From the NCBI GenBank assembly GCA_043756605.1, contig JAYURR010000174.1, forward strand, positions 4,641 through 68,640: DNA of 64,000 nt, given 5' to 3'. The notes beneath the pieces were generated by a model. It made no database searches. It was not told where the DNA came from and saw nothing but the letters and a program-made list of their open reading frames with translations. Shown here in pieces: positions 454-42,371 of the stretch. Source of the DNA: Chitinophagaceae bacterium. GTDB taxonomy: Bacteria > Bacteroidota > Bacteroidia > Chitinophagales > Chitinophagaceae. The position numbers and the translations under genes were made by a program. How positions within the stretch are numbered: position 1 is the first letter of the stretch; the number at the start of each line of letters is the position of its first letter.

Positions 454-993
454 TTAATCCAAAACCCACTTTATCATAAAAGGGTAAGGTGGTACGTTAA
501 GTAACAATGCATTTTTGTCGTCGGCTGTCATACCTTTCCATTGCAGCATGGGTAATCCGAAATAATTTTTATTGGCAAAATTATCAGCAATATAGCTGCC
601 GCCGCCCCGGTAGCCTTCATCATGAAAAACAACATATGGATCTAAACCCAGGTGACTACACGCTGCATAAGACCAGGCAATGGCCATCATTTCCTCTGCC
701 TCCCGCTGCTCCCTTTTTTCGATAGAAGATGCTGTAAGGGTGGGCCTTACGGCAGCAGGCACCACGGCAATATGCCCTGCCTCGTGTAAAATATCACCGG
801 GATATTTTAGTACTTCCCTGTCAATAATAATAACCCCGTTGCGAATGGAAAGCCCTGGCAAAAAACAGGGCTCTTCTATTTTTTCAAACCTTGTTTCTAT
901 ACCTATTCTGTTTAAAAACAAAATACACTTTTCAAGATATTCATCCAGCGGCACCTCACGGAGTGGGATAGCTTCAGTTTTGTTTTGGTGCAT
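454..993 (-). CDS. HExxH-motif hypothetical protein (putative metalloprotein)
   Basis: 179-aa ORF with GDILHEAGHIA and a downstream EEMMAIAWSYAA; same strand and directly upstream of the tail-collar gene. Confidence 0.75.
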   Translation of the reverse strand: MHQNKTEAIPLREVPLDEYLEKCILFLNRIGIETRFEKIEEPCFLPGLSIRNGVIIIDREVLKYPGDILHEAGHIAVVPAAVRPTLTASSIEKREQREAEEMMAIAWSYAACSHLGLDPYVVFHDEGYRGGGSYIADNFANKNYFGLPMLQWKGMTADDKNALLLNVPPYPFMIKWVLD

Positions 994-1318: not shown

Positions 1319-2032
1319 ATGAATACAAGGAGAAAATTCTTATTAAGCGGCAGCATGGCTACCGCTGCTTTGCTTACAGCCAAACCCTTTACGAGCATTG
1401 CCAACAGCCTTAGCCCGGTAACCGGTTTCAGAATCAATAACAATAGCCTGGTGCTGGCACATACAGGTAATGCAATACTTTTTGGCACAGGCCCGGCATT
1501 ACAGCAAATTACAAACCTTAAAAAAATTGGTGCTAACCTCATCATGTTACATGCGGGCAATTCAGCCCCAGCCCTGCAACCTCCATATGATGCCTCTATG
1601 CACGCAGGCGAATCTTTTTCTGTTAATGCTGATGATTACAAAATTATTTACAAAGGCGATATAAAAACAGGCGTTATAACTGCCAACAATAAATCTGCTT
1701 GTGCCGAGAGTATTAATACGCTTGCAGTATATCTTAAAAAAGAAAAAAATTGCCAACTGGTGGTATGCCTTTCTCAACTTGGGTTTAAATCAGAAACCGG
1801 CCTGGATGACCTGACACTTGCAGCTACCTCTACACAGCTTGATATAATTATTGGCGGCCATGCTACCAATTTCTGCAAAAGCCCGATGACTACTCTTAAT
1901 AAAAATAAAGAAGAAGTTATCATTAACCATGCCGGCACTAATGGGTTCGCTTTACGCAAAATTGAAATCGGTTTTGATAAGCAAGGCAGAAAATATCAGC
2001 TTGCATTTACAAGAACCAGTTTGCCGGCCTGA
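1319..2032 (+). CDS. Twin-arginine-leader protein, degenerate 5'-nucleotidase/metallophosphoesterase homolog
   Basis: RRKFLL leader; remnants LAHTGN, LHAGN, YKIIYKGDIKTG, LVVCLSQLG, DIIIGGH follow the order of the 5'-nucleotidase N-terminal domain, but most metal ligands are changed. Confidence 0.7.
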   Translation: MNTRRKFLLSGSMATAALLTAKPFTSIANSLSPVTGFRINNNSLVLAHTGNAILFGTGPALQQITNLKKIGANLIMLHAGNSAPALQPPYDASMHAGESFSVNADDYKIIYKGDIKTGVITANNKSACAESINTLAVYLKKEKNCQLVVCLSQLGFKSETGLDDLTLAATSTQLDIIIGGHATNFCKSPMTTLNKNKEEVIINHAGTNGFALRKIEIGFDKQGRKYQLAFTRTSLPA

Positions 2033-2062: not shown

Positions 2063-2779
2063 ATGCAGATCATCAAATACCTTCAATTGCCTTTTTATTT
2101 TGATGCAGGTTTATTGCAGCAGGAGGTTGATGCTATATCCCTGATGCAATGGCAACCGCACTACCAGATAAAACACTATGATGGTGAATGGAGTGCCATT
2201 CCATTACGCAGCATTGGCGGCAAGGCCGATGATATCATTATCTCTCCCTCCAACAACCGGGATTACCGGGATACTGTTTTTTTAGAAGGCAGTCCTTATC
2301 TGCAAAAAATATTACAAACCTTTCAATGCACACTGCAGGCAGTGCGGTTGCTGAAACTGAATACAGGCAGCAGTATTAAAGAACACCGTGATGCTGAACT
2401 GAATTTTGAAAACGGTGAAATACGTTTGCATATTCCGGTAATCACGCATGCTGATGTGGAGTTTTTTCTGGACAAAGAAAGATTGTTTTTAAAAGAAGGC
2501 GAATGCTGGTATATGAATTTTAACCTGTTGCATGCCATCAATAATAACAGCCCCGTAAACAGGGTACACCTGGTTATTGATGCGGTGGTAAATGATTGGA
2601 TTAAAGCATTATTCAACAGTGCAGATATTATTGTAAAAAAAGAAACGGAAGACCTTTCACGGGTTTATGATGAAGCAACAAAGAAAGAAATGATACTACA
2701 GTTCAGGGAAATGAATACTGCTGTAAGCAATAAAATGGCCGATGAACTTGAAGCAGAGATGCTATGTACCTCAGCATGA
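2063..2779 (+). CDS. Aspartyl/asparaginyl beta-hydroxylase domain protein (2OG-Fe(II) oxygenase)
   Basis: WSAIPLRS, VRLLKL...IKEHRD (HxD), RLHIPVITH, LHAINN, RVHLVID motifs. Confidence 0.88.
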   Translation: MQIIKYLQLPFYFDAGLLQQEVDAISLMQWQPHYQIKHYDGEWSAIPLRSIGGKADDIIISPSNNRDYRDTVFLEGSPYLQKILQTFQCTLQAVRLLKLNTGSSIKEHRDAELNFENGEIRLHIPVITHADVEFFLDKERLFLKEGECWYMNFNLLHAINNNSPVNRVHLVIDAVVNDWIKALFNSADIIVKKETEDLSRVYDEATKKEMILQFREMNTAVSNKMADELEAEMLCTSA

Positions 2780-2815: not shown

Positions 2816-3514
2816 ATGTTTAATAAATTAAAATTGATTAAAGCCATTGTTTACCGGTTTTACAGTTCCATCATCACTTTCATCATTGCATACCTGTTCA
2901 CCAAAAACCTGCTGGCATCTATATCCATCGGCATTATTGATTCTCTGATAAAAATATTTTCTTATTATGCTTTTGATGAAGTATGGGCAAAACTTACCGG
3001 GTTTAAAAACAACCCGGCTGTAATTTTTTTAACTGGTTTAAGCGGTTCGGGTAAAACCACCATTGCCAAAGCGCTGGTTGAAAAATATAAAAAGAAAGGT
3101 GTGATACCGGTACTGCTGGATGGCGATGAAATAAGAAAAGTGATTCACCAGACCGGTTTTGATGAAGAATCGAGAAAGAAGCATAATTTAAATGTGGGTT
3201 ACATGGCATCCTTGCTGGAAAGCCAGGGTAATGTGGTAATTGTATCGTTGATATCACCCTATATAGACATACGGAACGAAATAAGAACCATGTGCAAAAA
3301 ATTTGTTGAAGTACATGTTTGTACCGATATAAAAGTTTGCATACAACGTGACCCCAAAGGTTTGTATGCAAGAGCCATTGCCGGAGAGATAAAAGATTTT
3401 ACGGGGATATCGGCCCCCTATTACGCACCTGAAAACCCAGAAGTTTTACTTGATGCCGGAGTGCTGAGCATTGCAACCTGTACCGATAAAATATTTAAAG
3501 CAGCTAACAAATGA
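2816..3514 (+). CDS. cysC: Adenylyl-sulfate (APS) kinase with N-terminal DUF2061-like membrane domain
   Basis: P-loop FLTGLSGSGKTT, LLDGDEIR, SLISPY, RDPKGLY, FTGISAPY; the first ~58 aa form a hydrophobic hairpin ending YYAFDEVW. Confidence 0.9.
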   Translation: MFNKLKLIKAIVYRFYSSIITFIIAYLFTKNLLASISIGIIDSLIKIFSYYAFDEVWAKLTGFKNNPAVIFLTGLSGSGKTTIAKALVEKYKKKGVIPVLLDGDEIRKVIHQTGFDEESRKKHNLNVGYMASLLESQGNVVIVSLISPYIDIRNEIRTMCKKFVEVHVCTDIKVCIQRDPKGLYARAIAGEIKDFTGISAPYYAPENPEVLLDAGVLSIATCTDKIFKAANK

Positions 3515-3912
3515 GATACAATTTATTTATAGGAAGGTATCAAAGTCCGCACAAGGGGCACATGCATATTTTTGATACTTTTTTAACAGCAGGAAAGCCT
3601 GTATTGATCGCCATCAGAGACATTGAACCAGATGCCGCCAATCCACTAACTGCCGCCGAAGTAAAAACGCTTTGGGAAAAAGTGTATGAAGGTAACCTGT
3701 TGGTGAAAGTGATCATCATACCCGATATTGCATCGGTGAACTATGGAAGAGGTGTTGGTTATGCCATTAATGAGATTGATGTTCCGGAAACCGTTGCAGC
3801 CATATCGGCCACAGAAATAAGGCGGCAGGTAATTGCCGGTGAAGATGGATGGAAGGAATTTGTGGATGGCAATATTCATGAAATGCTGACGGCTTATCTG
3901 CAATCAAAATAA
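3511..3912 (+). CDS. Small HIGH-family (cytidylyltransferase-like) nucleotidyltransferase
   Basis: FIGRYQSPHKGH (HxGH) and ISATEIR motifs; ATGA overlap with cysC. Confidence 0.82.
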   Translation: MRYNLFIGRYQSPHKGHMHIFDTFLTAGKPVLIAIRDIEPDAANPLTAAEVKTLWEKVYEGNLLVKVIIIPDIASVNYGRGVGYAINEIDVPETVAAISATEIRRQVIAGEDGWKEFVDGNIHEMLTAYLQSK

Positions 3913-3987
3913 TTATTTTAGTGAGCTTGCTTTTTTATAATTCAGGAATCATGCTATATTTCAAACAGTTATTCTGTTCTTTGTCTT

Positions 3988-4139
3988 TTACTTTTTTGCT
4001 TCTCCAAAAAAGTAACAAAAAAAGAGCCCCGAAATCGATTACATCCCGATTTCGGGAAGGAGCCCTGATTGAGCTTTTGTACTACTGTAAACTCAAATTC
4101 GGTTCCCTGATTTTTAAGAGTTCAAAAACTGAACCTCTT
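3988..4139. repeat. Intergenic element of three consecutive hairpins
   Basis: ttacttttttg/caaaaaagtaa (3988-4015), cccgaaatcg/cgatttcggg (4028-4056), aagagttca/tgaacctctt (4116-4139). Confidence 0.6.
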
Positions 4140-4176
4140 TTCATAAAAAAACGGATTAGTATTTTATATTTTCAAG

Positions 4177-5145
4177 ATGAGCAATAATTATACAAGTCCT
4201 GTTAAAGGCTGGATTCCAATAAAATTATACGCGGAAGATGAGAGCCTGCTTTGCCGCTGGCTTTATGTTGGCAATAAAGAATTTAAAGAACCTTTTTTTG
4301 ATGAGACCATTTCGGCATGCCGAGCTTTACCAGAAAACGGGCATCTAAAAAGAAGCATGAGCAGCACGGATATGTTGATTGATTTATCAAAAGAGATTGA
4401 CTTTGTTGAACCAACTGCTTTTATATTTCATATCTCCCGCTGCGGCTCTACTTTAATCTCTCAAATGCTGGGCATGCAGCCATCAAATATTATTTTAGCC
4501 GAAGTACCATTTTTTGATGAGTTGTTGCGATATGGGAAGAAGCATAACTGCATGCCAGAGATGTTGCCACAACTTAAGGCTGCCTTTTATTTGTACGGTG
4601 CCGGGCGAAACGAAAATTATAAAAATCTTTTAATTAAAACCGATAGCTGGCATATACATTTTTATGAGGAGTTAAGAGCGTTACACCCTAACGTTCCGTT
4701 TTTTTTATTGTACCGTAAGCCTGATGAAGTATTGCGCTCACAACAAAAAAAAAGAGGCATGCAGGCCATACCCAATTTACTGGAGGCTGAAATTTTTGGA
4801 TTTGATAAAGATAAAATCTCTACCATGCCGTTTGATGAATACATGGGCCTGGTGATAGAAAGTTATATGCTGGCTTTTGAAAATATTTTACAAAAAGATA
4901 AACTTGCTTATGCAATAAACTATCATGATGGTGCCATGCAGATTGTTGATACCATTGCAACTGTTACCGGCTTGCAGATTACAGAAGCAGAAAAACTGCT
5001 GATGCAAAAAAGAGCGGGCTTTCATGCAAAATTTCCCACGCAGGTTTTTAATGAAGTACAGCCACATGAAGCAATGCCTGCTTATTTAAAAAGATCGTTT
5101 GAGCTGTATGATAAAATTGAAGCCAACAGGCAAAACAAAAAATAA
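4177..5145 (+). CDS. Sulfotransferase-like protein
   Basis: FIFHISRCGSTL (5'-PSB-like PAPS-binding loop) and LYRKPDEVLRS (3'-PB-like); lies downstream of the APS kinase. Confidence 0.75.
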   Translation: MSNNYTSPVKGWIPIKLYAEDESLLCRWLYVGNKEFKEPFFDETISACRALPENGHLKRSMSSTDMLIDLSKEIDFVEPTAFIFHISRCGSTLISQMLGMQPSNIILAEVPFFDELLRYGKKHNCMPEMLPQLKAAFYLYGAGRNENYKNLLIKTDSWHIHFYEELRALHPNVPFFLLYRKPDEVLRSQQKKRGMQAIPNLLEAEIFGFDKDKISTMPFDEYMGLVIESYMLAFENILQKDKLAYAINYHDGAMQIVDTIATVTGLQITEAEKLLMQKRAGFHAKFPTQVFNEVQPHEAMPAYLKRSFELYDKIEANRQNKK

Positions 5146-5156: not shown

Positions 5157-5834
5157 TTACATATCAGCCCACATCCTGAACAAGTTACTATGTGTTTGTA
5201 ACAACAAATTTGTTGCCGGTGCATTGGGCGCCTGCTTAAACAATGCACTGTGTACCTGATTGAGTTGAAATAATATTTGCCGCTGCCCAGGATCTTTTAC
5301 ATTGCTTTGTACCCAGGTAACCGCTGCCACCCTTTCGCCGCTTTTAATTTCATTTACACAATGCAGGTACTGGCATGGATACAGCACTGCATCTCCTTTG
5401 GCAGGTTTAAAATTTGCGGTGCCGGTATCTGACTGGATCATCAGTTCTCCACCTTCGTAGGTTGCAGGGTTGCTTAAAAAAATGGTCATCGCCAGGTCGG
5501 TACGAATTGGAGGGTTGCCCATCATGGGACTATCTACATGCCAGCCGTAATATTTTCCGGTGCTGTATTTACTAACCAAAAAAGGTTGAATATTTTTAGG
5601 CAGTGCGGCAATATTAAACAATGGGCTTTGCGCCAAAGCACCTGTAATTATTTTTTGAATCGCCGCCAGGTTTTCATTATTTGCTTCTATCTGCAAATTA
5701 TTTTTTACCTCTTTTGCAGCCATGCTGGCCGTTAATTTTCCATCCACAAAATTGGCATTTGCTATAAGTGCATCTATTGTTATTAATTCTGCAGCAGTGA
5801 GCAGTTCGGGTATATGCACCAGTTGTTGACTCAT
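5157..5834 (-). CDS. Fe2+/2OG-dependent dioxygenase, PKHD-type (PiuC/YbiX family)
   Basis: FVDGKLTA, YGWHVD (HxD), RTDLAMTIFLS, YEGGEL, LHCV, RVAAVTWVQS. Confidence 0.9.
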   Translation of the reverse strand: MSQQLVHIPELLTAAELITIDALIANANFVDGKLTASMAAKEVKNNLQIEANNENLAAIQKIITGALAQSPLFNIAALPKNIQPFLVSKYSTGKYYGWHVDSPMMGNPPIRTDLAMTIFLSNPATYEGGELMIQSDTGTANFKPAKGDAVLYPCQYLHCVNEIKSGERVAAVTWVQSNVKDPGQRQILFQLNQVHSALFKQAPNAPATNLLLQTHSNLFRMWADM

Positions 5835-6764: not shown

Positions 6765-9700
6765 TTATTGTTTTATCAGCTTCTCCACAATGGTTGCATC
6801 ATCTGTTTTAATGTGCAGCATGTAAGGTGCCGATGGAAGTTTATCGAGATCGTTAATGGTAAACCAGTTAAATCCTTTTAAGCCTTTAACCGATTTGCTA
6901 AATACCATACGGCCGTTGATATCAATAAACCTGAAATCAACGGGTGTATTGTGTGTAAGTGTTAAGTACACATCAATTTTACCGGTAAAAGGATTGGGTG
7001 CCACTTTAGTTACCAGTTGCATACCTGCATCAATTCTGATAATCACTATCTGGCTATATTCGAACTTGCCATCAAAATCTACAATCTTTAAGCGGTAATA
7101 ATTTACACCTTTTAGTGGTGCCGGATCTACAAGATCATAACTGGTTGCAGTATTGCTGTTGCCCTTGGCAATTACTGTTGCAAGTTTGGTAAAATTCTGT
7201 CCATCTGCACCACGCTCTACTTCAAAATGTTTGGTATTTAATTCATTGGCTGTTACCCAGTTCAAATCAACCTTTGTACCGTTTAACCGGCCGCTGAAGC
7301 TGATCAGTTTTACGGGCAGTATCTGGCTCCAGGTTACAGTTACCGTTGCAGGCGATGGATCGTATAATCCGGCTGCATCCCTTGCTGCATATTTAAATAC
7401 GGCCTGGTGTGCATCATCATCGGGATCTACCTGTAACAATGCCGGGTTAAAGTTTGTAATTACCTGGTTTAAGGTAGCCGCAATGCCATTATAGTATAAT
7501 ACAGACCTTGTTGGCAATTGGGTAATCATATATGTTTTACCACTGCCCAGTACCCCGTCTTCTGGATCGGTACCTGTTAACCCGCCTGTGATATCATATT
7601 GCACATTGGGGTCATTTCTTGCGTATGTTAAGGTTTTATCATCCGAATCGGGTAAACGTTCTATTCCAAAATTAACTGCGGTAACATTAACTGCGGCTGT
7701 AGTAACCGTAATAATACAGGTTGCTGCACCAGATTTTATACCCGTACCTGCTGCATTATTTACACCGTAGGCATCTCCGGTTGGTGCCCAGTTACCTGCA
7801 ACATAAGATGTACCTGCATCCGCCGGTGGCGAATCGCCGATGTTTACACTGATTGTACTTAAGCGCAGTGTATAATTGGTAAACATATCTGCATTGGCAA
7901 ATGAATAAGCCCCGGTACCACTAATTAAAGTTGTTCTTTGCACAACCTTACCGGTTGAATCAACCAGATATGCAAAAACCGCAGTACCGGTAATATTGCC
8001 AATTGCAGAACCGTTAACCAGGCCATCGGTTAACCCATTGGCATCATGAAACAAGGTGCCGCTGATACTGATTTTATTTTTTGCAATACCAAAATCAAAT
8101 GGTGCCAGGCAGGTTTGTGCACTGGTTGCGGTTATGGCATGTTGCAAAACCGTTGTGGTGTGGTGATAAGGTGGAACAGTTGTTGGATCAAGGCGTGTAA
8201 TATAACATATGGGGTACCTGATGAACTGAATTTTTACATTATCAATATACACCGTATCGGCATCATCTACATTATTATTGGTTAAGAAACGGATATAAGT
8301 TGTTGCTGCAGCATATTGTGTAATATCCTGGTTATAAATATTTACATAAGCGGCATCGGTTGTGCCATCGCCTGCAATTGTAAATACGGTTGCAAAAGCT
8401 GTTCCGTTTGTAGAGGCCTGCACAATCACGTCTTCACCGGCTGTTAAGGTTGCACTTTTTCTGCGGTAAGAGAAACTCATGAATGCATACGAAGCCCCTG
8501 ACAGATTTACCCTTCGGGTTGCTGATACATCATTATCTTTTAACCTGATGGCATTGGTAAAAGCTCCATCTTTATAAATTTCGGCATCTGTGTTTGCTTC
8601 GCTTTGAGCAGGGGTAACGCAAAATGCTGCATTGCCCGGGCCGGTTGAAGGGTCGCCGGCATCTACCCAATCTGTGAGCCATGCTCCAGATCCATCAGAA
8701 CCATTGTTACAGGTTCTGGCACCACCCACACCATCAAAATCATCTTCTACTGTTTTTTCGGGATAAGTTATAAACTGATAAGTACCAGACCCATCAACGG
8801 TAACCGAGTCTTTCAACTCATCCGTATCAATTACGGTATTACAGTTACCATCTACATATAAATACACTTTGCCTCCCGCAACACCGGTACCGCCGTCGTT
8901 ATTAACGCCATCGTCATTTTTATCTAAAAACACGGTACCAGCAATTACGTTTTGTGTAAATGGTGCCGGGCAAATGCTGATATCAACATAAACCGTTGCC
9001 ACATCGCACACAGTGGGCGTAGGTGTGGAGCATACATTGTACTCAAAAGTATCTTTACCGGTATAACCCGTATTAGGTGTATAAATAACCGTACCATTGG
9101 CATTTACAGATACGGTGCCATGTTTGGGCTGCAATAAAGCGGTTGTGCTTACCGAGCCGGGATCTACCACTGCAAGGAAGCCAAAATCGTTTATCAAAAT
9201 AGGTATAGTAACCGGCTGGTTAACCATTGTACGGGCATAATCGTCATTAGCAAAAATGAGTTTTTGTTTACAGAAAGGCTGAATGGTAGAACCCACATCC
9301 CAACTCGGACTACCTACAACTGCTGTAGAAGCATCTTCGCCATAAACCGCTGCCAGTTTAGCGCCGTTGCAGGTAAACACAGCTAAACCGCTCTGATCAT
9401 TATCACTGGCATCGAGTAAGCGCCTGTAATTAAGTGCATTGAGCGTATAAGATACATCATAACGCATACCGCATGGACTAAGCAAACCGGTACTGCCACT
9501 GATATTGCCATTATATTTTACATAAATGGTTGTATTAACTGTTGGTGTAACCCAAACCGGATTATCATTCCTGGTGCCATCTATAGAACCCGGGGCCCAG
9601 GCAATGGTAGCAAAGTCTGTAAGCCTGCTTTCGGCAATCAGGTTAAAAGACCAATCGTATGATGTTCCGGTGTTTCCGCCACCTCCAGGTGTGTAAGAGT

Positions 9701-12700
9701 CTAATATTTCAATAGCAGTAAAAGATTCGCCGGTTGGATTTACAAATTTGTAAGCAGCCGTTGCCGACAAAACAAGTGGAAAACGTATTACAGTTTTAGC
9801 AGGAATAGTTAAAGTGCCGTTAGATGGAATACCTGAAGACCAGTTTATATCTAAAGGCCTGTTTAAACTGTTATATAACATTACCACAGCCGTATCTTTA
9901 ATAGCGGTACTGCTTCCGGTTGTAGGTACCGGCGAGTAATAGGTATTTGAATACCAGGTGGCCGGAAATATAGGTACATCACGTGAGGAGTAATTATCAT
10001 TGCCGCCAAAATGCAGCTCTACACCAATTAATGCCGAAGCTGTAACTGTAGCACCGGATAATACACTGCCATTAACAAATAAAACCTCTCCTTCATTAAT
10101 AGTGGCCGTAGTTTCCAGTGTTCCGTTATTATCCTTATCAATTTCAACAACTGTATTATTCTGTGCTGCTCTTATAAAGAGTGATGTGTACCTGAAATCC
10201 TGGCTGGTAAAGTTCTGGCCTACCGGTATTGTAAATGATGTGCCATAATCTTTAACAGCAGATACATTGGTTTTCATACACTGTACCGCCATAATGGAGG
10301 GTTCTCCACAAACCTGTGTTACTGTTATCTGTCCGCTGGAAGTGATTTTATCTCTTCCATCGTAGAATATATTTGAAACAACCCTGGGATTGGTAGGCAT
10401 TGTATTGTCTAATACAATATTGCCACCGGCAGGGATAATATCAGAAGCATATCCCGGAACAATACCGTTGTAAGGGTTACCATCGCCCCAAACTTTGGTG
10501 GTAGCCTGTAATGGATCCAATGCATTTAGTTCATAACCATCCTCCCACTCATCCCATACTATCGTCATGCCGGGATATGGCATTTTCATACTGATAACCG
10601 TTCTTATATTATTACTTGGCGTAGCCGGACTTCCGGAACTATCCAATGCCATACGGGCTTCATTTTCTGAAAAAGGCAGATAAAACACGTGTGTCTTTGT
10701 TGCTTCCGAGCAGGGATCTATCAGCAAAGGATTTACTGTTAAGTAAATATAAGCTGTTGCACAGGCATTTGTACTATCACAAATCTGGTAAACCAGTGTA
10801 TCCTTACCTGCATAAGATCCATTGGGCAGATAAACCACTTTACCGTTTGATATAAAGCCGGTTCCGTTTCTGGGCTGTGTATTTATGGCAAGTGTAGAAA
10901 CTTTCATATTATTATTGGGATCATAATCATTACCCAAAACATCTACTATTATTGGTGCACCACCTGCCCCGGTGGCAGAATCGTTCAATGCTACCGGCGG
11001 ACAAACCGAGCATATATCAAAAGCCAGCAGATCAGAGTTTTTAATTAAATTTTCATATCCTTCCCTGGCTGTCGCCATCAGGTAATATAAATTGGTTGAG
11101 CCGGGGGTTGTCCATACATATTCATAAGTACGGGTGCAGGTAGTTGAATCTACACAGTTTACCGCATAAGTAGTACCCGGAGGATTAACTCTTAAATCCA
11201 TACCGGTAATATCGCTATAACCAAACGGTGTGGTAACTTTAGCCCTTACATAATAAGTGCTGTTTACCAATCCACTGGTTCTGATGGAGCCGGCCGGATA
11301 TGGTGCATTGTACACATTAAAACTAACAAAATCGATAAAGGTAGAAACCGGCAGCAGGCTTATCCTGGAGGGTTTGCTTGCGCTGTGGTATTCTATCTGG
11401 AACTGTACACCCGGTTGGGCAGAAGTAATATTTAATGCTACAGCCTGGCCCGATGGTACAGTTACGTCGGCACCAAGTGTACCAGTCCAGCTTAATATTT
11501 TTGTACTACTATTATATACGGGGTTGCTTAAACTTATAAAAGTTGTACTGCCGTATTTTAAACTGGCTGTTATAGCCGGATTTACCGGCATGGTACCACT
11601 GGTTACGTTAACATAAACCAGCATTTGTATGGTTTGTGCTTTAATTACCAGGTCGTTGCATAATGCCGGGCTTTGGGTAAATGTGATTGTATTTTGAGAT
11701 GCTGCTGGCTTTATGGGCACTGCTCCTAAAGCCCAGTCTGTTGATGCAGAAGTCCAGTTCATAATTGTAGTTGCTGCACCTGGCTCTGTACTTCCTGCAC
11801 CGGTAATTTCATTACCCGAACTCATATTCCATCTTTGTGTTTGCCCGGCAGTAACTGTAACTGGTTGATTTCTTATTGAAACAACATCATAAACCAGTTC
11901 CCCGCCTGCAGATGTTACATTTACGGACGGGTTTGTTGAACCTGCCTGTTGCGATGCAAATGTTCCTAGCGGAGTAGTTTGGTCTATACCGGTATAGGTT
12001 GTTACATTTACAACTGCACCCCTATCGGGAGCCGAGCTGAAATTAACAACCACATTAGCTGTGCCCGAAGGTGGATTAATCAATCGATAAAGCGCAATAC
12101 GGGCATTGCTATTTAAATTGTTTTCACCAACCAGTGTTAGTGCTGTTGCTCCATAAGTAACACTGGTAACGGTTCTGTTCTTTTGCGAAATACCCACCAG
12201 CATCAGCCTGTTGGCACCTGTACCGGTTGTATGTGCTACGGTTATTGGCATAGTGTTTCCGGTAACCGTATTTGACGCATCTATGGCAATGGGCGCCGTT
12301 GTTGATGAAATGGCATAAGAGGTAGCTGTAGTAGTAATATTAGTTGCTACCGGGTCTATCCTGTCGAGCAACATACCCGGATCGGATAAATACAGCGGCG
12401 TTTGCACCACCGATGGGTTGGCATTAACTATATGTGATGAAGTTGCAGGACCGTTACAACCAGTAGCCGAAGCCGTGATTGCCGAAGATCCAAACCAACT
12501 TGCCACCCAGGTAACCTGTCCGGTAGTTGTATTAATGGTATTACCGCCGGCTAAACTGGCAGCATCTAAACTATAAGTAATGCCTGTATTATTGGTAGCC
12601 GTAGCCGAATAAGTTATGGTTGCAGCACCCTGTGTACGCACCGATTGTATGCCCAACCCAAATACCGGAGTACCTACGGTTGGTGTAATAGTTACGGTAT

Positions 12701-15700
12701 GATTGGCTGTTCTGGGGCCATTGCAACCAGTTGCTGATGCAGTTATGATGGTACTGCCGGTCCAGTTTGCAACATAAGTCACTTCTCCGGTTGAACTGTT
12801 GATTGTATTTCCGGCAGTTATAGCAGCAGCATTCAAACTATAAGTTATACCTGTGGTATTTGTTGCACTTGCAGTATAGGTTACTGTAGCTGCTCCCTGA
12901 CAACGGGTAGATGTGGCACCCAAGGTAAATACCGGAGTACCTACAGTTGGGGTTATAGTTACCACATGTGCTGCAGAAGCAGGCCCATTACAACCTGCTG
13001 CAGAAGCTGTAATGATTGTTGTACCACTCCAGCCTGCAACATACACAACCACACCGGTTGTTGAATTGATGGTGTTACCACCTGTTATGCTGGCTGCATC
13101 AAGAGAATATGTAATAGATGTTGAATTGGAAGCTGTTGCTGTATAACCTACAAAAGCCCCTCCCTGGCAACGGGTGCTGGCAGCCCCCAATGTAAATACC
13201 GGTGTACCTACTGTTGGGGTTATGGTTACGGTATGGTTAGCTGTTGATGGGCCATTACAACCCGCTGCAGTTACTGTAATAATTGAAGTACCCGACCAGG
13301 CTGCATCATAAGTTACAGCACCGGTTGTTGCATTTATTGTATTACCGCCTGTAATACTGGCAGCATCCAGGCTATATGTTCTTGATGTACTGTTGCTTGC
13401 TGTGGCTGTATAGGTAACTGTACCTGCACCCTGGCAACGGGTGGTTGTAGCCCCCAATGTAAATACCGGAGTACCTACGGTTGGTGTTATGGTTACTGTA
13501 TGTATTGCGGTTCTTGGGCCGCTACAACCGGCGGCACTGGCAGTTATGATTGATGTACCACTCCAGCTTGCAACATAGGTTACCACACCCGTTGTTGCAT
13601 TTATACTATTACCGCCCGATATACTGGCGGCATTTAAAGTATAGGTAATTCCGGTTGTAGTTGTTGCTGTAGCATCATATTGTACTGTGCCGGCTCCCTG
13701 GCATCGGGTTGATGTTGCACCCAATGTAAATACCGGTGTACCAACCGTTGGAGTTATAGTTACTGTATGTGTTGCAGTTGATGGCCCGTTACAACCTGTG
13801 GCAGTAACTGTAACTATTGTGGTACCAACCCAGCCTGCAGCATACGTTACTGCACCGGTGGTTGTATTGATGGCATTACCACCAGTAATACTGGCAGCAT
13901 CCAGGCTGTAAGTAATACCTGTATTATTGGTGGCATTTGCAGTATAAGTAACTGTATTAGCATTCTGGCAACGGGTTGATGTAGCCCCCAAAGTAAATAC
14001 AGGTGTACCCACGGTTGGGGTAATGGTTACAGTATGTGTTGCTGTTTTGGGGCCATTACAACCTGTAGCAGTTACTGTAATGGTACTTGTTCCTGTCCAT
14101 GCAGCAACATAACTTACTTCTCCTGTTGATGAATTAATACTGTTTCCACCAGTAATACTGGAAGCATCGAGGCTATATGTTATGCCGGTGTTTGTTGTAG
14201 CTGTTGCTGTATAGGTAACATTTCCGGCTCCCTGGCAACGTGTAGATGTGGCACCAAGTGCAAATACCGGTGTACCAACTGATGCAGTTATGGTTACCAC
14301 ATGCGTTGCAGATGTTGGCCCGCTGCAACCTGCTGCTGTTGCTGTAATGGTAGTAGTACCACTCCAGCCTGCGGCATAAGTAACCGCACCGGTTGTTGTA
14401 TTGATTGAATTACCCGGGAATGCATCTGTTGTTGCATCCAGGGCATAGGTGATACCTTGATTGTTAGCTGCGGTTGCAGTATAAGTTACGGTAGCAGCTC
14501 CCTGGCAACGGGTAGATGTGGCACCCAGCGTAAATGAAGTTGCTCCCAGAATATCGTAGGTTGTAACCGTATGATTGGCCGATCTTGGCCCATTACAACC
14601 GGTTGCAGTTGCTGTAATTACTGAGGTTCCGGTCCATGCGGCAACAAAAGTAACATCACCGTTAATATTATTAATGGTATTACCACCAGCAAGGCTTGCG
14701 GCATCCAGGCTATAAACAATACCTGTGTTATTGGAAGCTGTAGCAGCATATGAAACAGTACCGGCACCAATACATCTTGATGAGGTTGACCCCAAACTAA
14801 ATACAGGGGTGCCAACACCTCCTGTAATAGTAACAATATGCGTTGCTGTTTTAGGGCCTCCACAACCGGTAGCAGTTGCAGTTATGGTAGAAGTACCAGT
14901 CCATAAAACCCAATAGGTTACTGCACCGGTAGCGGCGTTTATAGTATTGCCCCAGGTTAAACTGGTTGCATCCAGGCTGTAGGTTATTCCTGTACTATTG
15001 GAAGCTGTTGCTGTATAGGTTATAGTTCCTGCTCCAAAGCAACGGCTTGAAGTTGCTCCTAATGCAAATACGGGAGTGCCTATGGTTGCTGTAGTTGTAG
15101 CTGTATGATTAGCAGTTGTTGGCCCATTACAGCCCGAAGCTATTGCTGTAATGGTTGAACTGCCAACCCAGGCTACCGTATAATTTACCAATCCGTTTGC
15201 TGAATTGATTGTATTACCCGCAGCTAAACTGGCCGCATCTAAACTGAAAACAATGCCTGTATTATTTGATGCTGTAGCACTGTAATTAACATTTCCACCA
15301 ACCTGGCAACGTGTTGATGTGGCACCCAAGGCAAATACCGGAGTGCCTACTGCAGCTGTAATGGTTACTGTATGGTTTGATGTTCGGGGCCCGTTACAAC
15401 CTGCTGCACTGGCCGTAATGATGGTTGACCCTGTCCAGCCAGCTATATAGGTAACATCGCCGGTTGTAGCATTGATGGTATTACCACCGGTTAATGCTGC
15501 GGCATTCAATGTATAAGTTATGCTTGCTGCATAGGTTGCATTGGCAGTATAAGTAACCGTTGTAGCCCCCTGGCATCGGGTTGATGTTGCACCCAGCGTA
15601 AATACCGGATTTTGCACATCATCATTTGTTGTGGCGGTATGTGTGGCTGTTGATGGGCCGTTACAACCAGATGCTGTAGCTGTTATAATACTAACTCCAA

Positions 15701-17558
15701 CACGTCCTCCATTATAAAATACAGCACCGGTAGATGCATTTATTGTAAGCCCGGCCGCAATACTGGCTGCATCAAGGCTATAAACAATAGCTGTTGAGTT
15801 GGCCGCTGTGGCTGCATAAGTTACTGTAGCACTTGCCTTACAACGGGTAGATGTTGCGCCCAGCGTAAATACAGGTGTAGATACTGTAGGGGTAATAGTA
15901 ACGGTATGCGATGCCGTTTTAGGGCCATTACAACCTGCCGCCGAAACTGTAATTAAAGAGGTTCCGCTCCAGGTGGCTACATAAGTTACATCGCCGGTGG
16001 TTGCATTTATTGTATTGCCTGCGCCCAAACTGGTTGCATCAAGGGCATAAGAAAAACCTGTTGCATTGCTTGCAGTAGCATTATAATTTACGGTACCTGC
16101 TGCCTGGCAGCGGGAAGATATAGCTCCCAGATCAAAAGCAGGGGTGCCCACAGTAGGGGTAATGGTTACGTCATGTTCGGCAGTTAAAGGGATGCCACAA
16201 CTGGCTGCGCTGGCCGTAATGGTTGATGTACCGTTCCAGCCAGCCACATAAGTTACGGCACCGGTTGTTGCATTAATGGTGTTACCAAATGAAATACTCA
16301 ATGCATCCAAACTATAGGTAATACCTGTTGTATTGGAAGCAGTGGCTGTATAGGTTACTGTACCGGCACCCTGGCACCGGGTTGATGCAGGGCCATCATT
16401 AAATACTGGTGTAGTTGCAGGCACACTTGTTGTAGCCAGGTGATCGGCCGTTGTTGGGCCGTTACAACCTGCTGCCGCAACAGTAATTGTAGATATGGCT
16501 TCCCAATTTGCTGTATAGGTAACTGCACCTGTAGCTGCATTAATTGAATTTCCTGCCGCCTCACTTACCGCATCTAATGTATAGGTTAAACCGGTATTAT
16601 TAGAAGCAGAGGCTGTATAGGTTACTATGCCTGCGCCCTTACAACGCAAAGATGTGCCGCCCAGGCCAAATACCGGGGTACCCACATTTGGTGTAATAGT
16701 AACAGCTATGCTGCCTGCGCCTGCACTCCATGCAAAAGTTGTATTATCCCGTGAGCGTACGTAATAAGTACCTGATGTATTAACTGTATAAGATGAAGTT
16801 GAATTAGCTGTACTTGTACCCGCAGCAGTTGTTTGCCAATACCAGGTTTCGCCAACGGGTGGCGTACCTGTAAAATTCATGGTTACACCTGGCGAAGCAC
16901 ATTGTGGCGAATTGGAAGTTGGGTTGGCCGGATTAGCAGGCACAGGTACAGCGGTATTTACAGTACCATTTAAAGTAACTTCATCATTTCTCCAGTTAAC
17001 TAACAGCGCAGTATTTACATTTAATAAATAAAACCTGAACGTAACCGCACCAATATTTGTAAAACTGCCTGCTGGCAGGTTGATTACATCGGTTTGCATA
17101 ATTAATGTAACCGTATCCACAGCAATATTTGAGGTAAAATTATCAAGACTTGAACGTAAAACCCATTTGGTAACACCGCTTGCCGGGTCTCTATCATAAC
17201 GCTGGTTGAGAGACAGTTGAGTAAGTGTTAGATTATATCCTGAGGACGGCGTAACGGTAAATCCAAAGTACTCACTGGTGTTTACTGTATTGGTACCATT
17301 TGCCCAGTCCTGCGTTTCAAACTCGTTCGTCCGGGCTTTACAACTTATTCCTCCGGCAAAAACATAGTTACTAAATGTTGCATTAGCAGGCTGGGTGGTA
17401 ACAGCGGGATTTTGATGAGGGCAGGTTCCGAATCCTGTAAAGGAATAGTAACCCAACTGAGCTGTGGTTGTTAAGCTCAATGTAAACACCAAAAACCCTG
17501 TTATAAGGGCCTTTAATTGCTTTTGGAATATATTCCGGTTAGTAAAAATTGGTTTCAT
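6765..17558 (-). CDS. Giant (~3597 aa) T9SS type-A-sorted surface protein/adhesin
   Basis: Start moved to ATG 17558 ([11 protein letters not shown]...[12 protein letters not shown] signal peptide). Contains 16 Thr-rich Ig/PKD-like repeats, cadherin-like Ig domains (VALNDSA...DVLGND; ANDDYA...ILIND), an IgGFc-binding-like region, an SdrD-B-like domain and a C-terminal LPVKL...APNPFTG...KLIKQ sorting domain. Confidence 0.9.
   Translation of the reverse strand: [3597 protein letters not shown]
12420..16694 (-). repeat. 16 tandem 89-aa (267-bp) intragenic repeats
   Basis: Consensus [30 protein letters not shown]...[39 protein letters not shown].HTVTI; tgtaaataccgg recurs at 13191, 13458 and 13725 (267-bp spacing). 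Confidence 0.95.
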
Positions 17559-18017
17559 GTTGCTTTTATTTAGGATAACAGTGGATAAACTTTTATAAAC
17601 TATGTTTATAAAATCAATTTTTAAATACTTAAAAAAAATTGGTAAATAAAGCCATGCTTTTGCAGTTAGGGGCTGCACATAACCTGTAAACTTGTGTAAG
17701 TCTGGCTTCATTTTGTTTGGATATTGGTTAAATTCAAATTGTTAATAACTAACTAACTAACTGATAATCATAGCATTTAATAGATATTCTACAAAAAACA
17801 GTGTAGAATAACAACTACATAAACGTAATTATTGTGCAATTAGTATTAATACTTGGTAGTTTTTTCACTAACCCTGCATCAACATTTTAATTTTATGCCG
17901 TGGCAGATACGGTATTTTATTTTGCAGGGATTTTGCTCCTTAAAAAAACGATATCTTTTAAACAAACGGAATGGTTTAGATTTGGCTCCCGATAATTAAC
18001 GGGCTAAAAACAAACAC

Positions 18018-38629: not shown

Positions 38630-39769
38630 TTGCAAAAACATTCAGCAGATATAATTATTATTGGCGGCGGCCTGGCCGGACTGGTAAGCGCTATACATTT
38701 ATCTAAAGCGGGATTACAGGTAACATTGATAGAAAAAAACGAGTATCCAAAACACAAAGTTTGCGGCGAATATATCTCCAACGAAGTGTTGCCTTACCTG
38801 CAATATCTTGATGCAGATCCAATGCTGACAGGTGCAAAAAAAATTTCACGTTTTCAATTAAGCACCACCCGTGGAAAAATAATTGAAACAACACTGCCGC
38901 TCGGCGGCTTTGGTGTAAGCCGTTTTACACTCGATAATTTTCTATTTCAAAAAGCAGTGCAAAATAATTGCAGCATCATTCAGGATACAGTTTTGGATGT
39001 GCATTTTAAAAATGATATTTTCAGGGTAACAACCAAACAAGGAACAACATTATCTGCAAAAATAATAATTGGTGCATTTGGCAAGAGAAGCAATCTGGAC
39101 ATTACGCTTAACAGAGATTTTATAAAAAACAAATCCCCTTTTGTGGGCGTAAAAATGCACATGCAGGGCAATTTTCCCGATGATCTGGTAGCCTTGCACA
39201 ACTTTAAAGGTGGCTACTGTGGCGTATCGCAGGTTGAAAATGGGAATATCAATGTTTGCTATCTTGCCAATTACAATAGTTTTCAGCAGTACAAAAATAT
39301 TGATGCCTTTAATAAAGAAGTGCTTTACAAAAATCTGCATTTAAAAAATATTTTTGAAAACTGCACCCCCGTTTTTGAGCAACCATTAACCATTAGCCAG
39401 ATTTCTTTTTCAGATAAAACAACCATGCAGAATCACATACTTATGTGTGGCGATGCGGCCGGCATGATACACCCTTTATGTGGCAACGGTATGGCCATGG
39501 CTATACACAGTGCAAAAATAGCTACCGAACTGGTGATTGATTATTTTGAGAAAAAAATAAAAACGAGAGAAGATCTGGAAGCAGCCTACAACCTGCAATG
39601 GAACAAGGCATTTAAAAAAAGAATAACCACCGGCAGAATGCTGCAATCCCTTTTTGGTAAAGACAATCTTACAAGAGCAATCATGTATGGCCTTACACAT
39701 GTACCGGGGTTACTGCCCGCAATTATAAAAAAAACCCACGGCAAGCCTTTAAACGTATCTACTTTATGA
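38630..39769 (+). CDS. FAD-dependent oxidoreductase (geranylgeranyl-reductase/halogenase-like fold)
   Basis: IIGGGLAG, HKVCGEYIS, CGDAAGMIHPLCGNGMAMA. Confidence 0.85.
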   Translation: MQKHSADIIIIGGGLAGLVSAIHLSKAGLQVTLIEKNEYPKHKVCGEYISNEVLPYLQYLDADPMLTGAKKISRFQLSTTRGKIIETTLPLGGFGVSRFTLDNFLFQKAVQNNCSIIQDTVLDVHFKNDIFRVTTKQGTTLSAKIIIGAFGKRSNLDITLNRDFIKNKSPFVGVKMHMQGNFPDDLVALHNFKGGYCGVSQVENGNINVCYLANYNSFQQYKNIDAFNKEVLYKNLHLKNIFENCTPVFEQPLTISQISFSDKTTMQNHILMCGDAAGMIHPLCGNGMAMAIHSAKIATELVIDYFEKKIKTREDLEAAYNLQWNKAFKKRITTGRMLQSLFGKDNLTRAIMYGLTHVPGLLPAIIKKTHGKPLNVSTL

Positions 39770-39820
39770 AAAATTGGTTAGAATATTGCTGACTATTTTC
39801 CCCATCAGAAAAAATTAAAC

Positions 39821-40531
39821 GTGTTTGTAAATACAAAATACCGCAGTACAGAAGAAGAAATAATGGATAATTTATCTATGGAAGGAGAAATGCTGCGTAA
39901 AGCGCTGGATAATATTGCGGCTATAAACAAACGGCTGGGCGGCAATCAGGCAACTATCAGTGGATTGAAAACTTTATTGAAAACTGAGTCAAAAGATGCT
40001 GTTATTACCCTTGTTGATATGGGATGTGGTAGTGGAGATATGTTGAGGGCTGTGGCTGATTATGGAAGAAGAAATAATTTTATTTTTAAGTTGATTGGCA
40101 TTGATGCAAATGAATTTACAGTAAATTATGCCCGCAAGCTTTCAGAAAACTATCCTGAAATAAGCTACATTAAAATGGATATATTGGGTGATGAATTTTC
40201 GGGCATAACCTTTGATATAGCTATTACAACCCTGTTTCTTCACCATTTTACCAATCAGCAAATTGAAGACCTGTTGATTTCAATTGTAAAAAATGTAAGG
40301 ATAGGTATTGTGGTTAACGATCTGCACAGGAGCAGTGTGGCTTATTATCTTTTTAAAGGCTTAAGCTTTTTCATAAATAATTCAATGGTAAAAAAAGATG
40401 GAGCCATTTCTGTTTTACGCGGATTTAAAAAAAATGAATTAAATGCTATCAGTAAAAAATTAAAAGATTCGGTGAGTACCATCCATTGGAAATGGGCTTT
40501 CAGGTATCAATGGATAATAAAAAAAGTATGA
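39821..40531 (+). CDS. Class I SAM-dependent methyltransferase
   Basis: VDMGCGSGD motif I, LFLHHF, NDLHRS. Confidence 0.85.
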   Translation: MFVNTKYRSTEEEIMDNLSMEGEMLRKALDNIAAINKRLGGNQATISGLKTLLKTESKDAVITLVDMGCGSGDMLRAVADYGRRNNFIFKLIGIDANEFTVNYARKLSENYPEISYIKMDILGDEFSGITFDIAITTLFLHHFTNQQIEDLLISIVKNVRIGIVVNDLHRSSVAYYLFKGLSFFINNSMVKKDGAISVLRGFKKNELNAISKKLKDSVSTIHWKWAFRYQWIIKKV

Positions 40532-41580
40532 GCGTAAAAATAAAATCAGTAGCAAAGCAATTACCACCTTACTCACGTGAAACCGCAGATATTGTGCCAT
40601 TGGTAGAAACCTGGCTTGCAGGGCAGGATGAAAGATTTATAAGAAAAGTGATAAAGATTTTTGGCAATGCAGGTGTAGATAAAAGGTACTCTATTATGAG
40701 TCCTGAAGAAGTTTTTACAAGTACTTCGTTTGAGCAGAAAAATGATATCTACGTTCGTGAATGCACAAAACTGGCGGAGCAATCTTTACAAAAAGCATTG
40801 GATAAAGCCGGCTGGAAAGCTGATGAAATTGATTACCTGATAACCGTAAGTTGTACCGGCATTATGATACCCTCAATTGATGCATACCTGGTGAACAAAT
40901 TAAAAATGAAACAGGATATTGTGCGCCTGCCGGTTACCGAAATGGGCTGTGCGGCTGGCGTTTCGGGCATCATTTATGCAAAAAATTTTTTAAAAGCCAA
41001 CCCTGGTAAAAAAGCGGCGGTGGTTGCAGTTGAATCGCCCACTGCTACTTTTCAGTTGAATGATTTTACAATGGCCAATGCAGTAAGTGCTGCTATTTTT
41101 GGGGATGGTGCTGCTGCTATTTTGTTATCATCATGCCCCGAAGATGAAGGTCCGGAAATTATTGCAGAAGAAATGTATCACTTTTATGATGCAGAATACA
41201 TGATGGGTTTTAAACTCACCAACAATGGCCTGCAGATGATATTGGATGAAACTGTGCCTGAAACTATTTCGGCACATTTTCCAAAAATTGTGCATCCTTT
41301 TCTTGAAAAAAATAATACAAATATTGAAGCAGTAGATCATCTTATTTTTCATCCCGGCGGCAGAAAAATTGTACACACTGTGGAAGAGTTGTTTGGCTCG
41401 TTGGGAAAAAATATTAACGACACCAGAGAAGTTTTAAAACAATATGGAAATATGAGCAGCGTAACCGTACTTTATGTTTTAGAAAGGTTTCTGGAAAAAG
41501 ATATTGCAAAAGGAGATAAGGGTCTAATGCTTAGTTTTGGCCCCGGCTTTTCGGCACAAAGTATTTTATTACAATGGTAA
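40528..41580 (+). CDS. Type III polyketide synthase (chalcone-synthase-like)
   Basis: Catalytic triad EMGCAAG (Cys), IFHPGG (His), YGNMSS (Asn); FGDGAAA, FGPGF; start moved to ATG 40528. Confidence 0.95.
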   Translation: MSVKIKSVAKQLPPYSRETADIVPLVETWLAGQDERFIRKVIKIFGNAGVDKRYSIMSPEEVFTSTSFEQKNDIYVRECTKLAEQSLQKALDKAGWKADEIDYLITVSCTGIMIPSIDAYLVNKLKMKQDIVRLPVTEMGCAAGVSGIIYAKNFLKANPGKKAAVVAVESPTATFQLNDFTMANAVSAAIFGDGAAAILLSSCPEDEGPEIIAEEMYHFYDAEYMMGFKLTNNGLQMILDETVPETISAHFPKIVHPFLEKNNTNIEAVDHLIFHPGGRKIVHTVEELFGSLGKNINDTREVLKQYGNMSSVTVLYVLERFLEKDIAKGDKGLMLSFGPGFSAQSILLQW

Positions 41581-42371
41581 AAGAATTTGAAAATAAAAAT
41601 TACTGGGCACTCATTTTGGGTGGTTCGGCAGGCTTGGGTCTGGCATCTGCCAAAAAACTGGCAGCACATGGTTGTAATATTATCATTGTGTATCGCAGTA
41701 CCAGGGCCGATGTTGTAAGTATTGAGCAGGAATTTGATGCTATAAAAGCAACGGGTGTTGACCTTATTTCTTTTAATAAAGATGCCATGTCGGCTGAAAA
41801 AAGAGAAAGCATTATAAGTGATATACAGGAAAAACTGGGCCAGGCAGGAAAAATAAGATTGCTGCTCCACAGCATTGCCAAGGGAAATTTAAAACCGATG
41901 ATTGCAGATGAAAATGCGGCTTTGCAAAATGATGATTTTCATTTAACGCTTGAGTCAATGGCCATAAGTTTATACGATTGGACCAAGCTGCTTTTTGAAA
42001 AAAAATTATTTGCAGCCGATGCTAGGGTTATCAGTTTTACCAGCGAAGGAAACCGGAAAGCTTTTAAAACCTATGCTGCCGTATCTGCCGCCAAAGCTGC
42101 GCTGGAAGCAATTACCAGGAACATTGCATTGGAATTTGCTCCATATGGCATAAGGGCAAATTGCATACAGGCAGGTGTTACAAACACTTTTTCATTCAGG
42201 ATGATTCCCGGACATGAACAACTGGAAGAAGCGGCAATGAAACGAAACCCTTTTAAAAAATTAACAACTCCCGAGGATGTGGCAAATGTGCTGTATCTTT
42301 TGTGCAAAGATGAAGCCGCCTGGATAAACGGAACCATCATTATTGCCGACGGAGGAGAACATATCAATTAA
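41574..42371 (+). CDS. SDR enoyl-ACP reductase-like (FabI/FabL-like)
   Basis: LILGGSAGLG, YAAVSAAK (YxxxxxxK), NCIQAG, PEDVA. Confidence 0.85.
   Translation: MVKEFENKNYWALILGGSAGLGLASAKKLAAHGCNIIIVYRSTRADVVSIEQEFDAIKATGVDLISFNKDAMSAEKRESIISDIQEKLGQAGKIRLLLHSIAKGNLKPMIADENAALQNDDFHLTLESMAISLYDWTKLLFEKKLFAADARVISFTSEGNRKAFKTYAAVSAAKAALEAITRNIALEFAPYGIRANCIQAGVTNTFSFRMIPGHEQLEEAAMKRNPFKKLTTPEDVANVLYLLCKDEAAWINGTIIIADGGEHIN

Follow-up and report, generated by a model that had tools for sequence, protein, structure and literature searches.

How is adenosine 5'-phosphosulfate (APS) formed at a locus that encodes an APS kinase and a presumed consumer of 3'-phosphoadenosine 5'-phosphosulfate (PAPS), with no known ATP sulfurylase nearby? 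This question is raised by a 64,000-nucleotide stretch of DNA from a Chitinophagaceae bacterium (assembly GCA_043756605.1, contig JAYURR010000174.1, positions 4,641 to 68,640 of the forward strand; hereafter, the window). All sulfate assimilation and biological sulfation start from sulfate activation, and to our knowledge the recognized types of sulfate-activation enzyme are Sat and CysDN only. Here we analyze NT, the 133-amino acid HxGH/ISxTxxR nucleotidyltransferase encoded by the open reading frame (ORF) 3511..3912 (+) of the window. A preliminary description of the sequence had proposed that NT is a miniature, noncanonical sulfate adenylyltransferase, and comparative genomics supports this proposal with evidence from gene context. 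Based on the contexts of the family as a whole, we consider it reasonably likely that NT forms APS. It is probably a third, non-orthologous type of ATP sulfurylase which arose from the branch of the archaeal nicotinamide mononucleotide (NMN) adenylyltransferases (NMNAT) and catalyzes the reaction of ATP and sulfate to APS and pyrophosphate (PPi). The reaction is known, and the family appears to be undescribed, belonging neither to Sat nor to CysDN. No paper describing it was found in the literature searched, in which coverage of subscription journals was thin.

The NT gene overlaps an APS kinase gene

ORF 3511..3912 is a real, conserved gene, and its product reads MRYNLFIGRYQSPHKGH...ISATEIRRQV... 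The ATG of NT (3511-3513) overlaps the TGA (3512-3514) of the upstream ORF 2816..3514 (+), so that an ATGA start/stop overlap is read from the sequence at 3511..3514 (+). The same 4-nucleotide overlap between NT and APS kinase genes recurs in loci L001, L004, and L008-L012, and it suggests translational coupling of the two genes. This upstream ORF encodes a genuine APS kinase, with a Pfam APS_kinase match of 2.6e-48 and a score of 181 bits for NCBIfam TIGR00455, for which the cut-off is 138.7. Pfam and NCBIfam matches place the kinase at amino acids 64-229 and, fused to its N terminus, a DUF2061 membrane segment at amino acids 7-58 (2.6e-12), a point absent from the preliminary description. 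That description had read the motifs GRYQSPHKGH and ISATEIR in NT as well as an ATGA overlap with cysC, all of which we found in place. In a search for transcript evidence, the runs containing the window sequence were from DNA sediment metagenomes only.

Motifs and predicted fold of NT

NT carries both the HxGH and the ISxTxxR hallmarks of the nucleotidyltransferase (Rossmann-like alpha/beta phosphodiesterase) superfamily. The first is part of GRYQSPHKGH (amino acids 8-17, nt 3532..3561, +), in which Gly8-Arg9 and His14-x-Gly-His17 constitute the ATP-binding/catalytic motif. The second is the superfamily motif ISATEIR (amino acids 98-104, nt 3802..3822, +) with Ser99, Thr101, and Arg104. The family loop YGRGVGY (amino acids 78-84, nt 3742..3762, +), with Gly79, Arg80, and Gly83, is the proposed sulfate site. 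Conservation was counted over 342 unique sequences of the NT family, and G8, R9, H14, H17, R36, G79, R80, G83, S99, T101, and R104 are each kept in at least 328 of them (about 96% or more). Individually, R9 is present in 333, H14 in 331, and H17 in 334 of the 342 sequences, with eight sequences gapped at these three columns; the counts are 339 for R80, 340 for S99, 328 for T101, and 339 for R104.

The match of NT to Pfam CTP_transf_like (PF01467) scores 20.9 bits against a gathering score of 21, and its homologues score 23-39 bits. An AlphaFold model made with 63 sequences as input has a predicted local distance difference test score (pLDDT) of 94.2 and a predicted template modeling score (pTM) of 0.87. 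In Foldseek, this model, a Rossmann-like alpha/beta fold, matches archaeal NMNAT and phosphopantetheine adenylyltransferase (PPAT) with probability 1.00 and a template modeling (TM) score of about 0.7; a comparison with viral structures gave only generic "cytidyltransferase-like" names. In public databases, members of the family are called "hypothetical" or, in IMG, "NMN adenylyltransferase", or are buried in proteins named "adenylyl-sulfate kinase". As judged from its sequence and predicted fold, NT is a trimmed, apparently catalytic NMNAT-like adenylyltransferase.

NT differs from archaeal NMNAT

By profile and fold, the closest relatives of NT are the archaeal NMNATs (NadM; M. jannaschii MJ0541, PDB 1f9a; M. 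thermautotrophicus, 1ej2/4yp7). A profile of the family matches 1f9a at 2.3e-16 in a comparison with PDB, followed by PPATs. NT and archaeal NMNAT share the motifs GRxQPxHxGH and (I/Y)S(A/G)TE(I/V)R and an NPFT segment, and ISATEIR of NT aligns with YSGTEIRRR of NMNAT. The earlier view that the NT motifs are nearer to those of NMNAT than to those of Sat was thus upheld by NCBIfam, profile, and fold comparisons. NT has 133 amino acids, whereas archaeal NMNATs have 168-181. In the profile alignment to 1f9a, NT residues 7-74 correspond to NMNAT residues 5-76 and NT residues 82-129 to NMNAT residues 109-154, and NMNAT residues ~77-108 (~32 residues) are replaced in NT by a seven-residue loop within the motif SVNYGRGVGY. 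We take the NMNAT segment ~77-108 to be part of the NMN pocket. The best NCBIfam models for NT are those of archaeal NMNAT (TIGR01527 and NF002243), with scores well under the cut-offs (33.1 against 181.2 bits and 39.8 against 127 bits, respectively). No genes of NAD biosynthesis or salvage (Nudix, NadV, PnuC) were found near NT, where the neighbors are instead APS kinase, CysQ, sulfotransferases, and CysH/Sir. Because of the sub-cut-off scores, the missing segment, and a gene context of sulfate activation, we rejected the IMG annotation of NT as an NMNAT.

PPAT (CoaD), an HxGH adenylyltransferase of ~160 amino acids, uses 4'-phosphopantetheine as the acceptor, and its product is 3'-phosphorylated by a P-loop kinase. 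It is the second-best fold match of NT, but the kinase linked to NT is APS kinase and not CoaE.

NT is fused or adjacent to APS kinase in bacteria, archaea, and viruses

The NT family comprises 907 close homologues, 838 representative clusters, and 2873 profile hits. Among the 150 best representatives, NT is fused to APS kinase in 54, of which 40 have the order APS kinase-NT and 14 the order NT-APS kinase, and two more are NT-DUF2061 fusions. The kinase halves match Pfam APS_kinase at 6e-50 to 9.5e-69 and score above the TIGR00455 cut-off. We surveyed 80 loci from genomes, with one genome per species, 80 loci from metagenomes, and the best 80 viral loci. APS kinase is fused or adjacent to NT in 53 of the 80 genome loci and in 71 of the 80 metagenome loci, with five more of the latter ending at a contig edge. 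At least 570 IMG/VR contigs carry an NT homologue, and APS kinase is fused or adjacent in 74 of the best 80. The genome loci linked to APS kinase are from Bacteroidota (Chitinophagaceae and Flavobacteriales), Acidobacteriota, Planctomycetota, Omnitrophota, Marinimicrobia, and SAR11, and also from several lineages of the candidate phyla radiation (CPR) and DPANN, Methanosarcinales, and Alphaproteobacteria. In cultured haloarchaea (Halostagnicola larsenii XH-48, Haloprofundus, Haladaptatus, Natrinema, and others; L253:7014-10124 and L254:6039-9138), ten megaplasmids encode, in this order, a sulfotransferase, a "cysC" that is really an APS kinase-NT fusion (WP_049954638.1 in H. larsenii XH-48), and a YqcI/YcgG protein. 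Consistent adjacency of homologues to cysC had been set beforehand as a check on the proposal, and it holds, with fusions in both orders, in more than 15 phyla and on viral contigs.

DUF2061 recurs with the APS kinase-NT pair, at 23 loci from metagenomes and 39 from viral contigs. In some cases it is part of the kinase protein, as in the window (2816-3000), and in others it is a separate small ORF (L091, L143-L172, and L173-L251). Such a segment may tether PAPS synthesis to the membrane.

Two variants of the pair deserve mention. In L038:7267-9481 and L055:7199-9478, from Methanosarcinales and an unclassified archaeon, the genes are, in order, CysQ, an NT-APS kinase fusion, and a second, stand-alone APS kinase; a regulatory role is possible for one of these kinases. 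In L069:7435-9326, from a SAR11 single-cell genome, and L075:834-2723, from a metagenome-assembled genome (MAG) of Flavobacteriaceae, the APS kinase-NT pair is followed by a protein consisting of the pyruvate kinase barrel only (Pfam PK, ~1e-60).

Many neighboring genes belong to the PAPS cycle or to an APS reductase operon

Within two genes of the pair, Inositol_P/CysQ and Sulfotransfer_3 are the families encountered most often in a set of 27 diverse cellular loci (five each), and Sulfotransfer_1, sulfatase, TauE, UDP-glucose dehydrogenase, and glycosyltransferases rank after them. Of the metagenome-derived loci, 26 encode a CysQ homologue. The neighbors on viral contigs include sugar-nucleotide epimerases, dehydratases, and dehydrogenases, sulfotransferases of the families Sulfotransfer_1, _2, and _3, and glycosyltransferases. 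In one representative, NT is fused to a DHH/DHHA1 phosphoesterase; DHH enzymes are established phosphatases of 3'-phosphoadenosine 5'-phosphate (PAP) (PMC10322725). ATGA coupling, fusions in both orders, and CysQ and sulfotransferase neighbors together give the features of a PAPS synthase-type module.

A second context lacks the kinase. In L019, a MAG labeled Nitrospiraceae, and in the metagenome contigs L093-L096, which are 80-100% identical, the gene order is Rrf2, sulfite reductase, CysH, and NT as the last gene of the operon (L019:4641-8414), followed by genes for TrpD-like (Glycos_transf_3) and DUF420 proteins. The sulfite reductase has two NIR_SIR modules and a TusA domain. The CysH is of the Fe-S APS reductase type, scoring 273 bits for TIGR02055 against a cut-off of 235 and carrying CC...CxxC and ECGLH motifs. 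No APS kinase was found within 7 kb of NT in L019 and L093-L096. The NT of these loci is 74-78% identical to Bacteroidota NTs located beside APS kinase and CysQ. The arrangement looks like a sulfate-assimilation operon with NT in the position where a sulfurylase is expected. The APS kinase and APS reductase contexts have a single metabolite in common, APS, which would therefore be the product of NT and would make NT more than a mere helper of the kinase. This argument from two contexts is the strongest we have, and it points to NT making APS.

No canonical sulfurylase was found in the window or, at nearly all loci, near NT

The preliminary description had noted that sat and cysDN are missing from the cassette, and this extends to the entire window. 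Neither Sat, CysD, CysN, CysH, Sir, nor CysQ was found in the 64 kb by Pfam searches of ORFs of at least 150 amino acids up to 55 kb, six-frame motif scans, and six-frame phmmer searches, with Sat screened by motif and Pfam only. CysD and CysN were not found by phmmer in 251 of 252 loci, with 7-10 kb of flank each.

Relation to known sulfate-activating enzymes

Sat-type ATP sulfurylase (PF01747; yeast MET3, PDB 1G8H) belongs to the same HxxH superfamily as NT and catalyzes the reaction that we propose for NT. Both proteins often have APS kinase as a fusion partner or neighbor, and both occur in assimilation operons with CysH and Sir. NT has an HXXH motif (HKGH, amino acids 14-17) as Sat does, but is about one-third the size of Sat, lacks its PUA-like N-terminal domain, and in YGRGVGY shares just a G-R dipeptide with the GRD loop of Sat. 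A few NT homologues have weak PF01747 matches, at the C terminus only. When a direct connection to Sat was sought by sequence and by structure, no ATP sulfurylase was among the matches listed, and membership of NT in the Sat family was therefore rejected.

CysD/CysN is likewise assigned the same reaction as proposed here and has the same operon partner, cysC. Its fold is unrelated, however, being a PP-loop (SxGKDS) ATP pyrophosphatase with a GTPase, and NT has no GTPase partner. The bifunctional PAPS synthases of animals, fungi, and Aquifex, which are Sat-CysC or APSK-ATPS fusions, follow the same logic of an adenylyltransferase with a 3'-kinase, and their neighbors, PAP phosphatase and sulfotransferase, are also those of NT modules. 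The NT fusions occur in both orders, and their NT half is much smaller and of another family than the corresponding part of PAPS synthases.

Alternative explanations

Several observations weigh against NT as an ATP sulfurylase. Its nearest relatives are NMN adenylyltransferases. The Sat motifs are QXRN, VGRDHAG (the GRD loop), and PFR (PMC6607087), and the NT of the window has none of the three and no PF01747 match. No ATP sulfurylase is among the top 50 Foldseek matches or the 60 listed of 76 PDB profile matches. About 16 loci of Thermodesulfobacteriota and Dadabacteria encode a stand-alone NT of 152 amino acids among housekeeping genes (aat-like, GATase, and UbiX/UbiD), with no sulfur genes within 8 kb. 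The fusions of phages and Alphaproteobacteria (phrog_10255) have a short kinase half that is too divergent to be called APS kinase, and because of this their function may differ. In the Acidobacteriota MAG L037 (DATGWN010000087.1), the sole locus of the 252 with CysDN, an NT-APS kinase fusion coexists with a divergently oriented cysN-cysD (L037:5117-8259). The absence of sulfurylases is bounded as well: it holds for the 64-kb window and the 7-10 kb flanks at the 252 loci, and for Sat it means no Sat motifs in the scanned loci and no ATP sulfurylase among the top neighbor families, by motif scans and top-25 Pfam summaries only. Because the search covered neighborhoods only, NT could be redundant with a canonical Sat or CysDN.

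If so, NT might be a noncatalytic or regulatory partner of APS kinase that senses APS, PAPS, or ATP, with APS supplied by Sat or CysDN from elsewhere, as the presence of cysDN beside the fusion in L037 would allow. We regard this as improbable. A precedent is the APS kinase of Entamoeba histolytica (EhAPSK), in which a Sat-derived sulfurylase-like domain no longer binds substrate and acts as a modulator of the kinase (PMC13213808); such a partner would also resemble the APS kinase-like allosteric domain of fungal ATP sulfurylase. Both the EhAPSK domain and NT are attached to APS kinase, but the former is degenerate and regulatory, whereas NT, unlike a degenerate domain, keeps its HxGH and ISxTxxR residues and four arginines almost without exception across the 342 sequences. 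NT is moreover present without APS kinase in the Sir-CysH-NT operons, and compact viral modules contain NT and APS kinase with no sulfurylase. The L037 locus itself can be read in the opposite direction. Its NT, in which GHDVGY replaces GRGVGY, is one of just three of the 342 sequences without Arg80, a loss beside CysDN that would be expected if NT is normally catalytic and becomes dispensable when CysDN is present, albeit in a single case; this NT domain may be degenerating. A comparably small chance attaches to NT adenylylating another acceptor, such as NMN or nicotinic acid mononucleotide, a small anion, or a phospho-sugar or -alcohol, with the product then 3'-phosphorylated by the linked kinase in the manner of PPAT and dephospho-CoA kinase. 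The best sequence and fold matches and the IMG name fit such an activity, as do the divergent kinase halves of the phage and alphaproteobacterial proteins and those stand-alone copies that are without a sulfur context. Against it are the NMNAT scores below the cut-offs, the missing segment 77-108, and the lack of NAD-salvage genes nearby; linked kinases also exceed the cut-off of the APS kinase equivalog, and the neighbors are CysQ, sulfotransferases, APS reductase, and sulfite reductase. That NT instead consumes APS, forming ATP from APS and PPi or acting as an APS:phosphate adenylyltransferase (similar to ADP sulfurylase), or that it proofreads or salvages and so controls APS levels, strikes us as very unlikely. 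The ATP sulfurylase reaction is reversible, its thermodynamics favor ATP formation, and APS kinase and CysH contexts would be expected for any APS-handling enzyme. Yet neither sulfation cassettes nor Sir-CysH operons can work without APS, for which no other source is encoded nearby in 251 of the 252 loci, and fusing an APS-destroying enzyme to APS kinase would be futile.

Proposed mechanism and significance

If NT is an ATP sulfurylase, Arg9, His14, His17, Ser99, Thr101, and Arg104 would, like their counterparts in NMNAT, PPAT, and Sat, hold MgATP and stabilize the transition state at the alpha-phosphate and the leaving PPi. Arg80 of the GRGVGY loop, possibly together with Arg36, would form a small pocket for the sulfate anion, which would attack the alpha-phosphate in line, with PPi leaving. 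The unfavorable equilibrium would be pulled by a coupled or fused APS kinase converting APS into PAPS, or by APS reductase, in addition to cellular pyrophosphatase. We infer that APS is channeled to the kinase where the two enzymes are linked. In the window, the membrane-anchored APS kinase would make PAPS, which the adjacent sulfotransferase may spend on a substrate that is probably hydroxylated by a 2-oxoglutarate (2OG) oxygenase of the cassette. In other lineages, APS from NT may enter sulfur assimilation directly, by way of Fe-S APS reductase and sulfite reductase.

With somewhat better than even confidence, we see in NT the founding example of a third class of ATP sulfurylase, NMNAT-derived proteins of ~110-135 amino acids that are widespread in bacteria, archaea (among them cultured haloarchaea), CPR and DPANN lineages, and hundreds of viral contigs. 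If this is true, NT and APS kinase, often with a DUF2061 anchor, would constitute a portable PAPS synthase of two or three genes. With this module viruses would sulfate glycans, and many of them would encode self-contained PAPS synthesis beside sulfotransferases and sugar-nucleotide enzymes. Pathways in genomes and metagenomes that are scored as incomplete, having Sir and CysH, or CysC and a sulfotransferase, without a sulfurylase, could be complete. The protein would also offer a very small sulfate-activating enzyme for PAPS regeneration in biotechnology, and would show that an NMNAT scaffold can be pared down to take a small inorganic anion.

Phage homologues

The kinase-NT fusions of cultured phages and many Alphaproteobacteria comprise ~245-290 amino acids and are labeled "kinase" or "adenylylsulfate kinase". 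The phages with a phrog_10255 "kinase" are the Xylella phages Sano (gp35, L006:5584-6321), Salvo, and Bacata and the Stenotrophomonas phage DLP6 (L007:4590-5321). No sulfotransferase is annotated near the phrog_10255 fusions. In the phage-like sequences P0122, P0125, P0126, P0189, P0241, and P0225, NT homologues carry an N-terminal zinc-ribbon/HNH endonuclease part, which looks like a homing endonuclease fused to, or miscalled with, the NT gene.

Other genes of the cassette and neighboring DNA

The window cassette, consisting of genes for a 179-amino acid protein, a hydroxylase, APS kinase, NT, and a sulfotransferase, recurs in Chitinophagaceae and in the Acidobacteriota MAG L024, in which APS kinase and NT are fused. 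The sulfotransferase-like protein (4177..5145, +), the presumed PAPS consumer, matches Pfam Sulfotransfer_3 at 1e-5 with 26.3 bits, just below the gathering score of 27. Its best PDB profile match is 4gox (E 0.0025), in an alignment spanning the regions of SRCGSTL, which resembles a 5'-phosphosulfate-binding (5'-PSB) motif, and of YRKPDEVLRS, which resembles a 3'-phosphate-binding (3'-PB) motif. From the sequence, these are read as PAPS-binding motifs. The gene is kept beside NT in Chitinophagaceae and in L024. The distance between the NT and sulfotransferase genes is 265 bp in the window as opposed to 0-20 bp in relatives. This noncoding gap (window 3913-4176) holds a perfect 10-bp hairpin, CCCGAAATCG...CGATTTCGGG, around 4030-4057, and no repeat of the 265-bp sequence was found in the window or in any fetched locus.

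Upstream of the kinase gene, ORF 2063..2779 (+) encodes a 2OG-Fe(II) oxygenase of the Asp/Arg beta-hydroxylase family (Pfam Asp_Arg_Hydrox, 2e-14), the gene for which is co-located in L001-L004, L008-L011, and L024. This oxygenase may create the hydroxyl group that is later sulfated. It is preceded by a conserved cassette protein of 237 amino acids with a Tat-like (twin-arginine translocation) N terminus (1319..2032, +), which is conserved upstream in Chitinophagaceae loci and has weak NCBIfam similarity to the C-terminal domains of 5'-nucleotidase and SoxB (6.6e-5 and 1.5e-4). The 179-amino acid protein (454..993, -) has no Pfam or NCBIfam match; phmmer found its homologues beside the cassette in L001, L004, L008, L009, L011, and L024, and thus also in Acidobacteriota. 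Convergent with the cassette is a gene for a PKHD/YbiX-type Fe(II) dioxygenase (5157..5834, -; NCBIfam NF003974, 245 bits), conserved as a neighbor in Chitinophagaceae only (L001, L004, L008-L011, and L014).

Farther along the window, 6765-17711 (-) encodes a repetitive cell-surface protein of 3648 amino acids with many tandem Ig-like repeats of ~95 amino acids, and its counterparts at the same position in L001 and L004 have a C-terminal Por_Secre_tail (type IX secretion) domain. A lipid/polyketide cluster at 38630-44923 encodes an FAD-dependent oxidoreductase, a methyltransferase, a type III polyketide synthase, an enoyl reductase/short-chain dehydrogenase, a FabA-like dehydratase, a ketosynthase, and a phosphopantetheinyl transferase, and looks like a cluster of the alkylresorcinol or flexirubin type. 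Sulfated alkylresorcinols are known (PMC12135136). The cluster sits 35 kb from the sulfation cassette.

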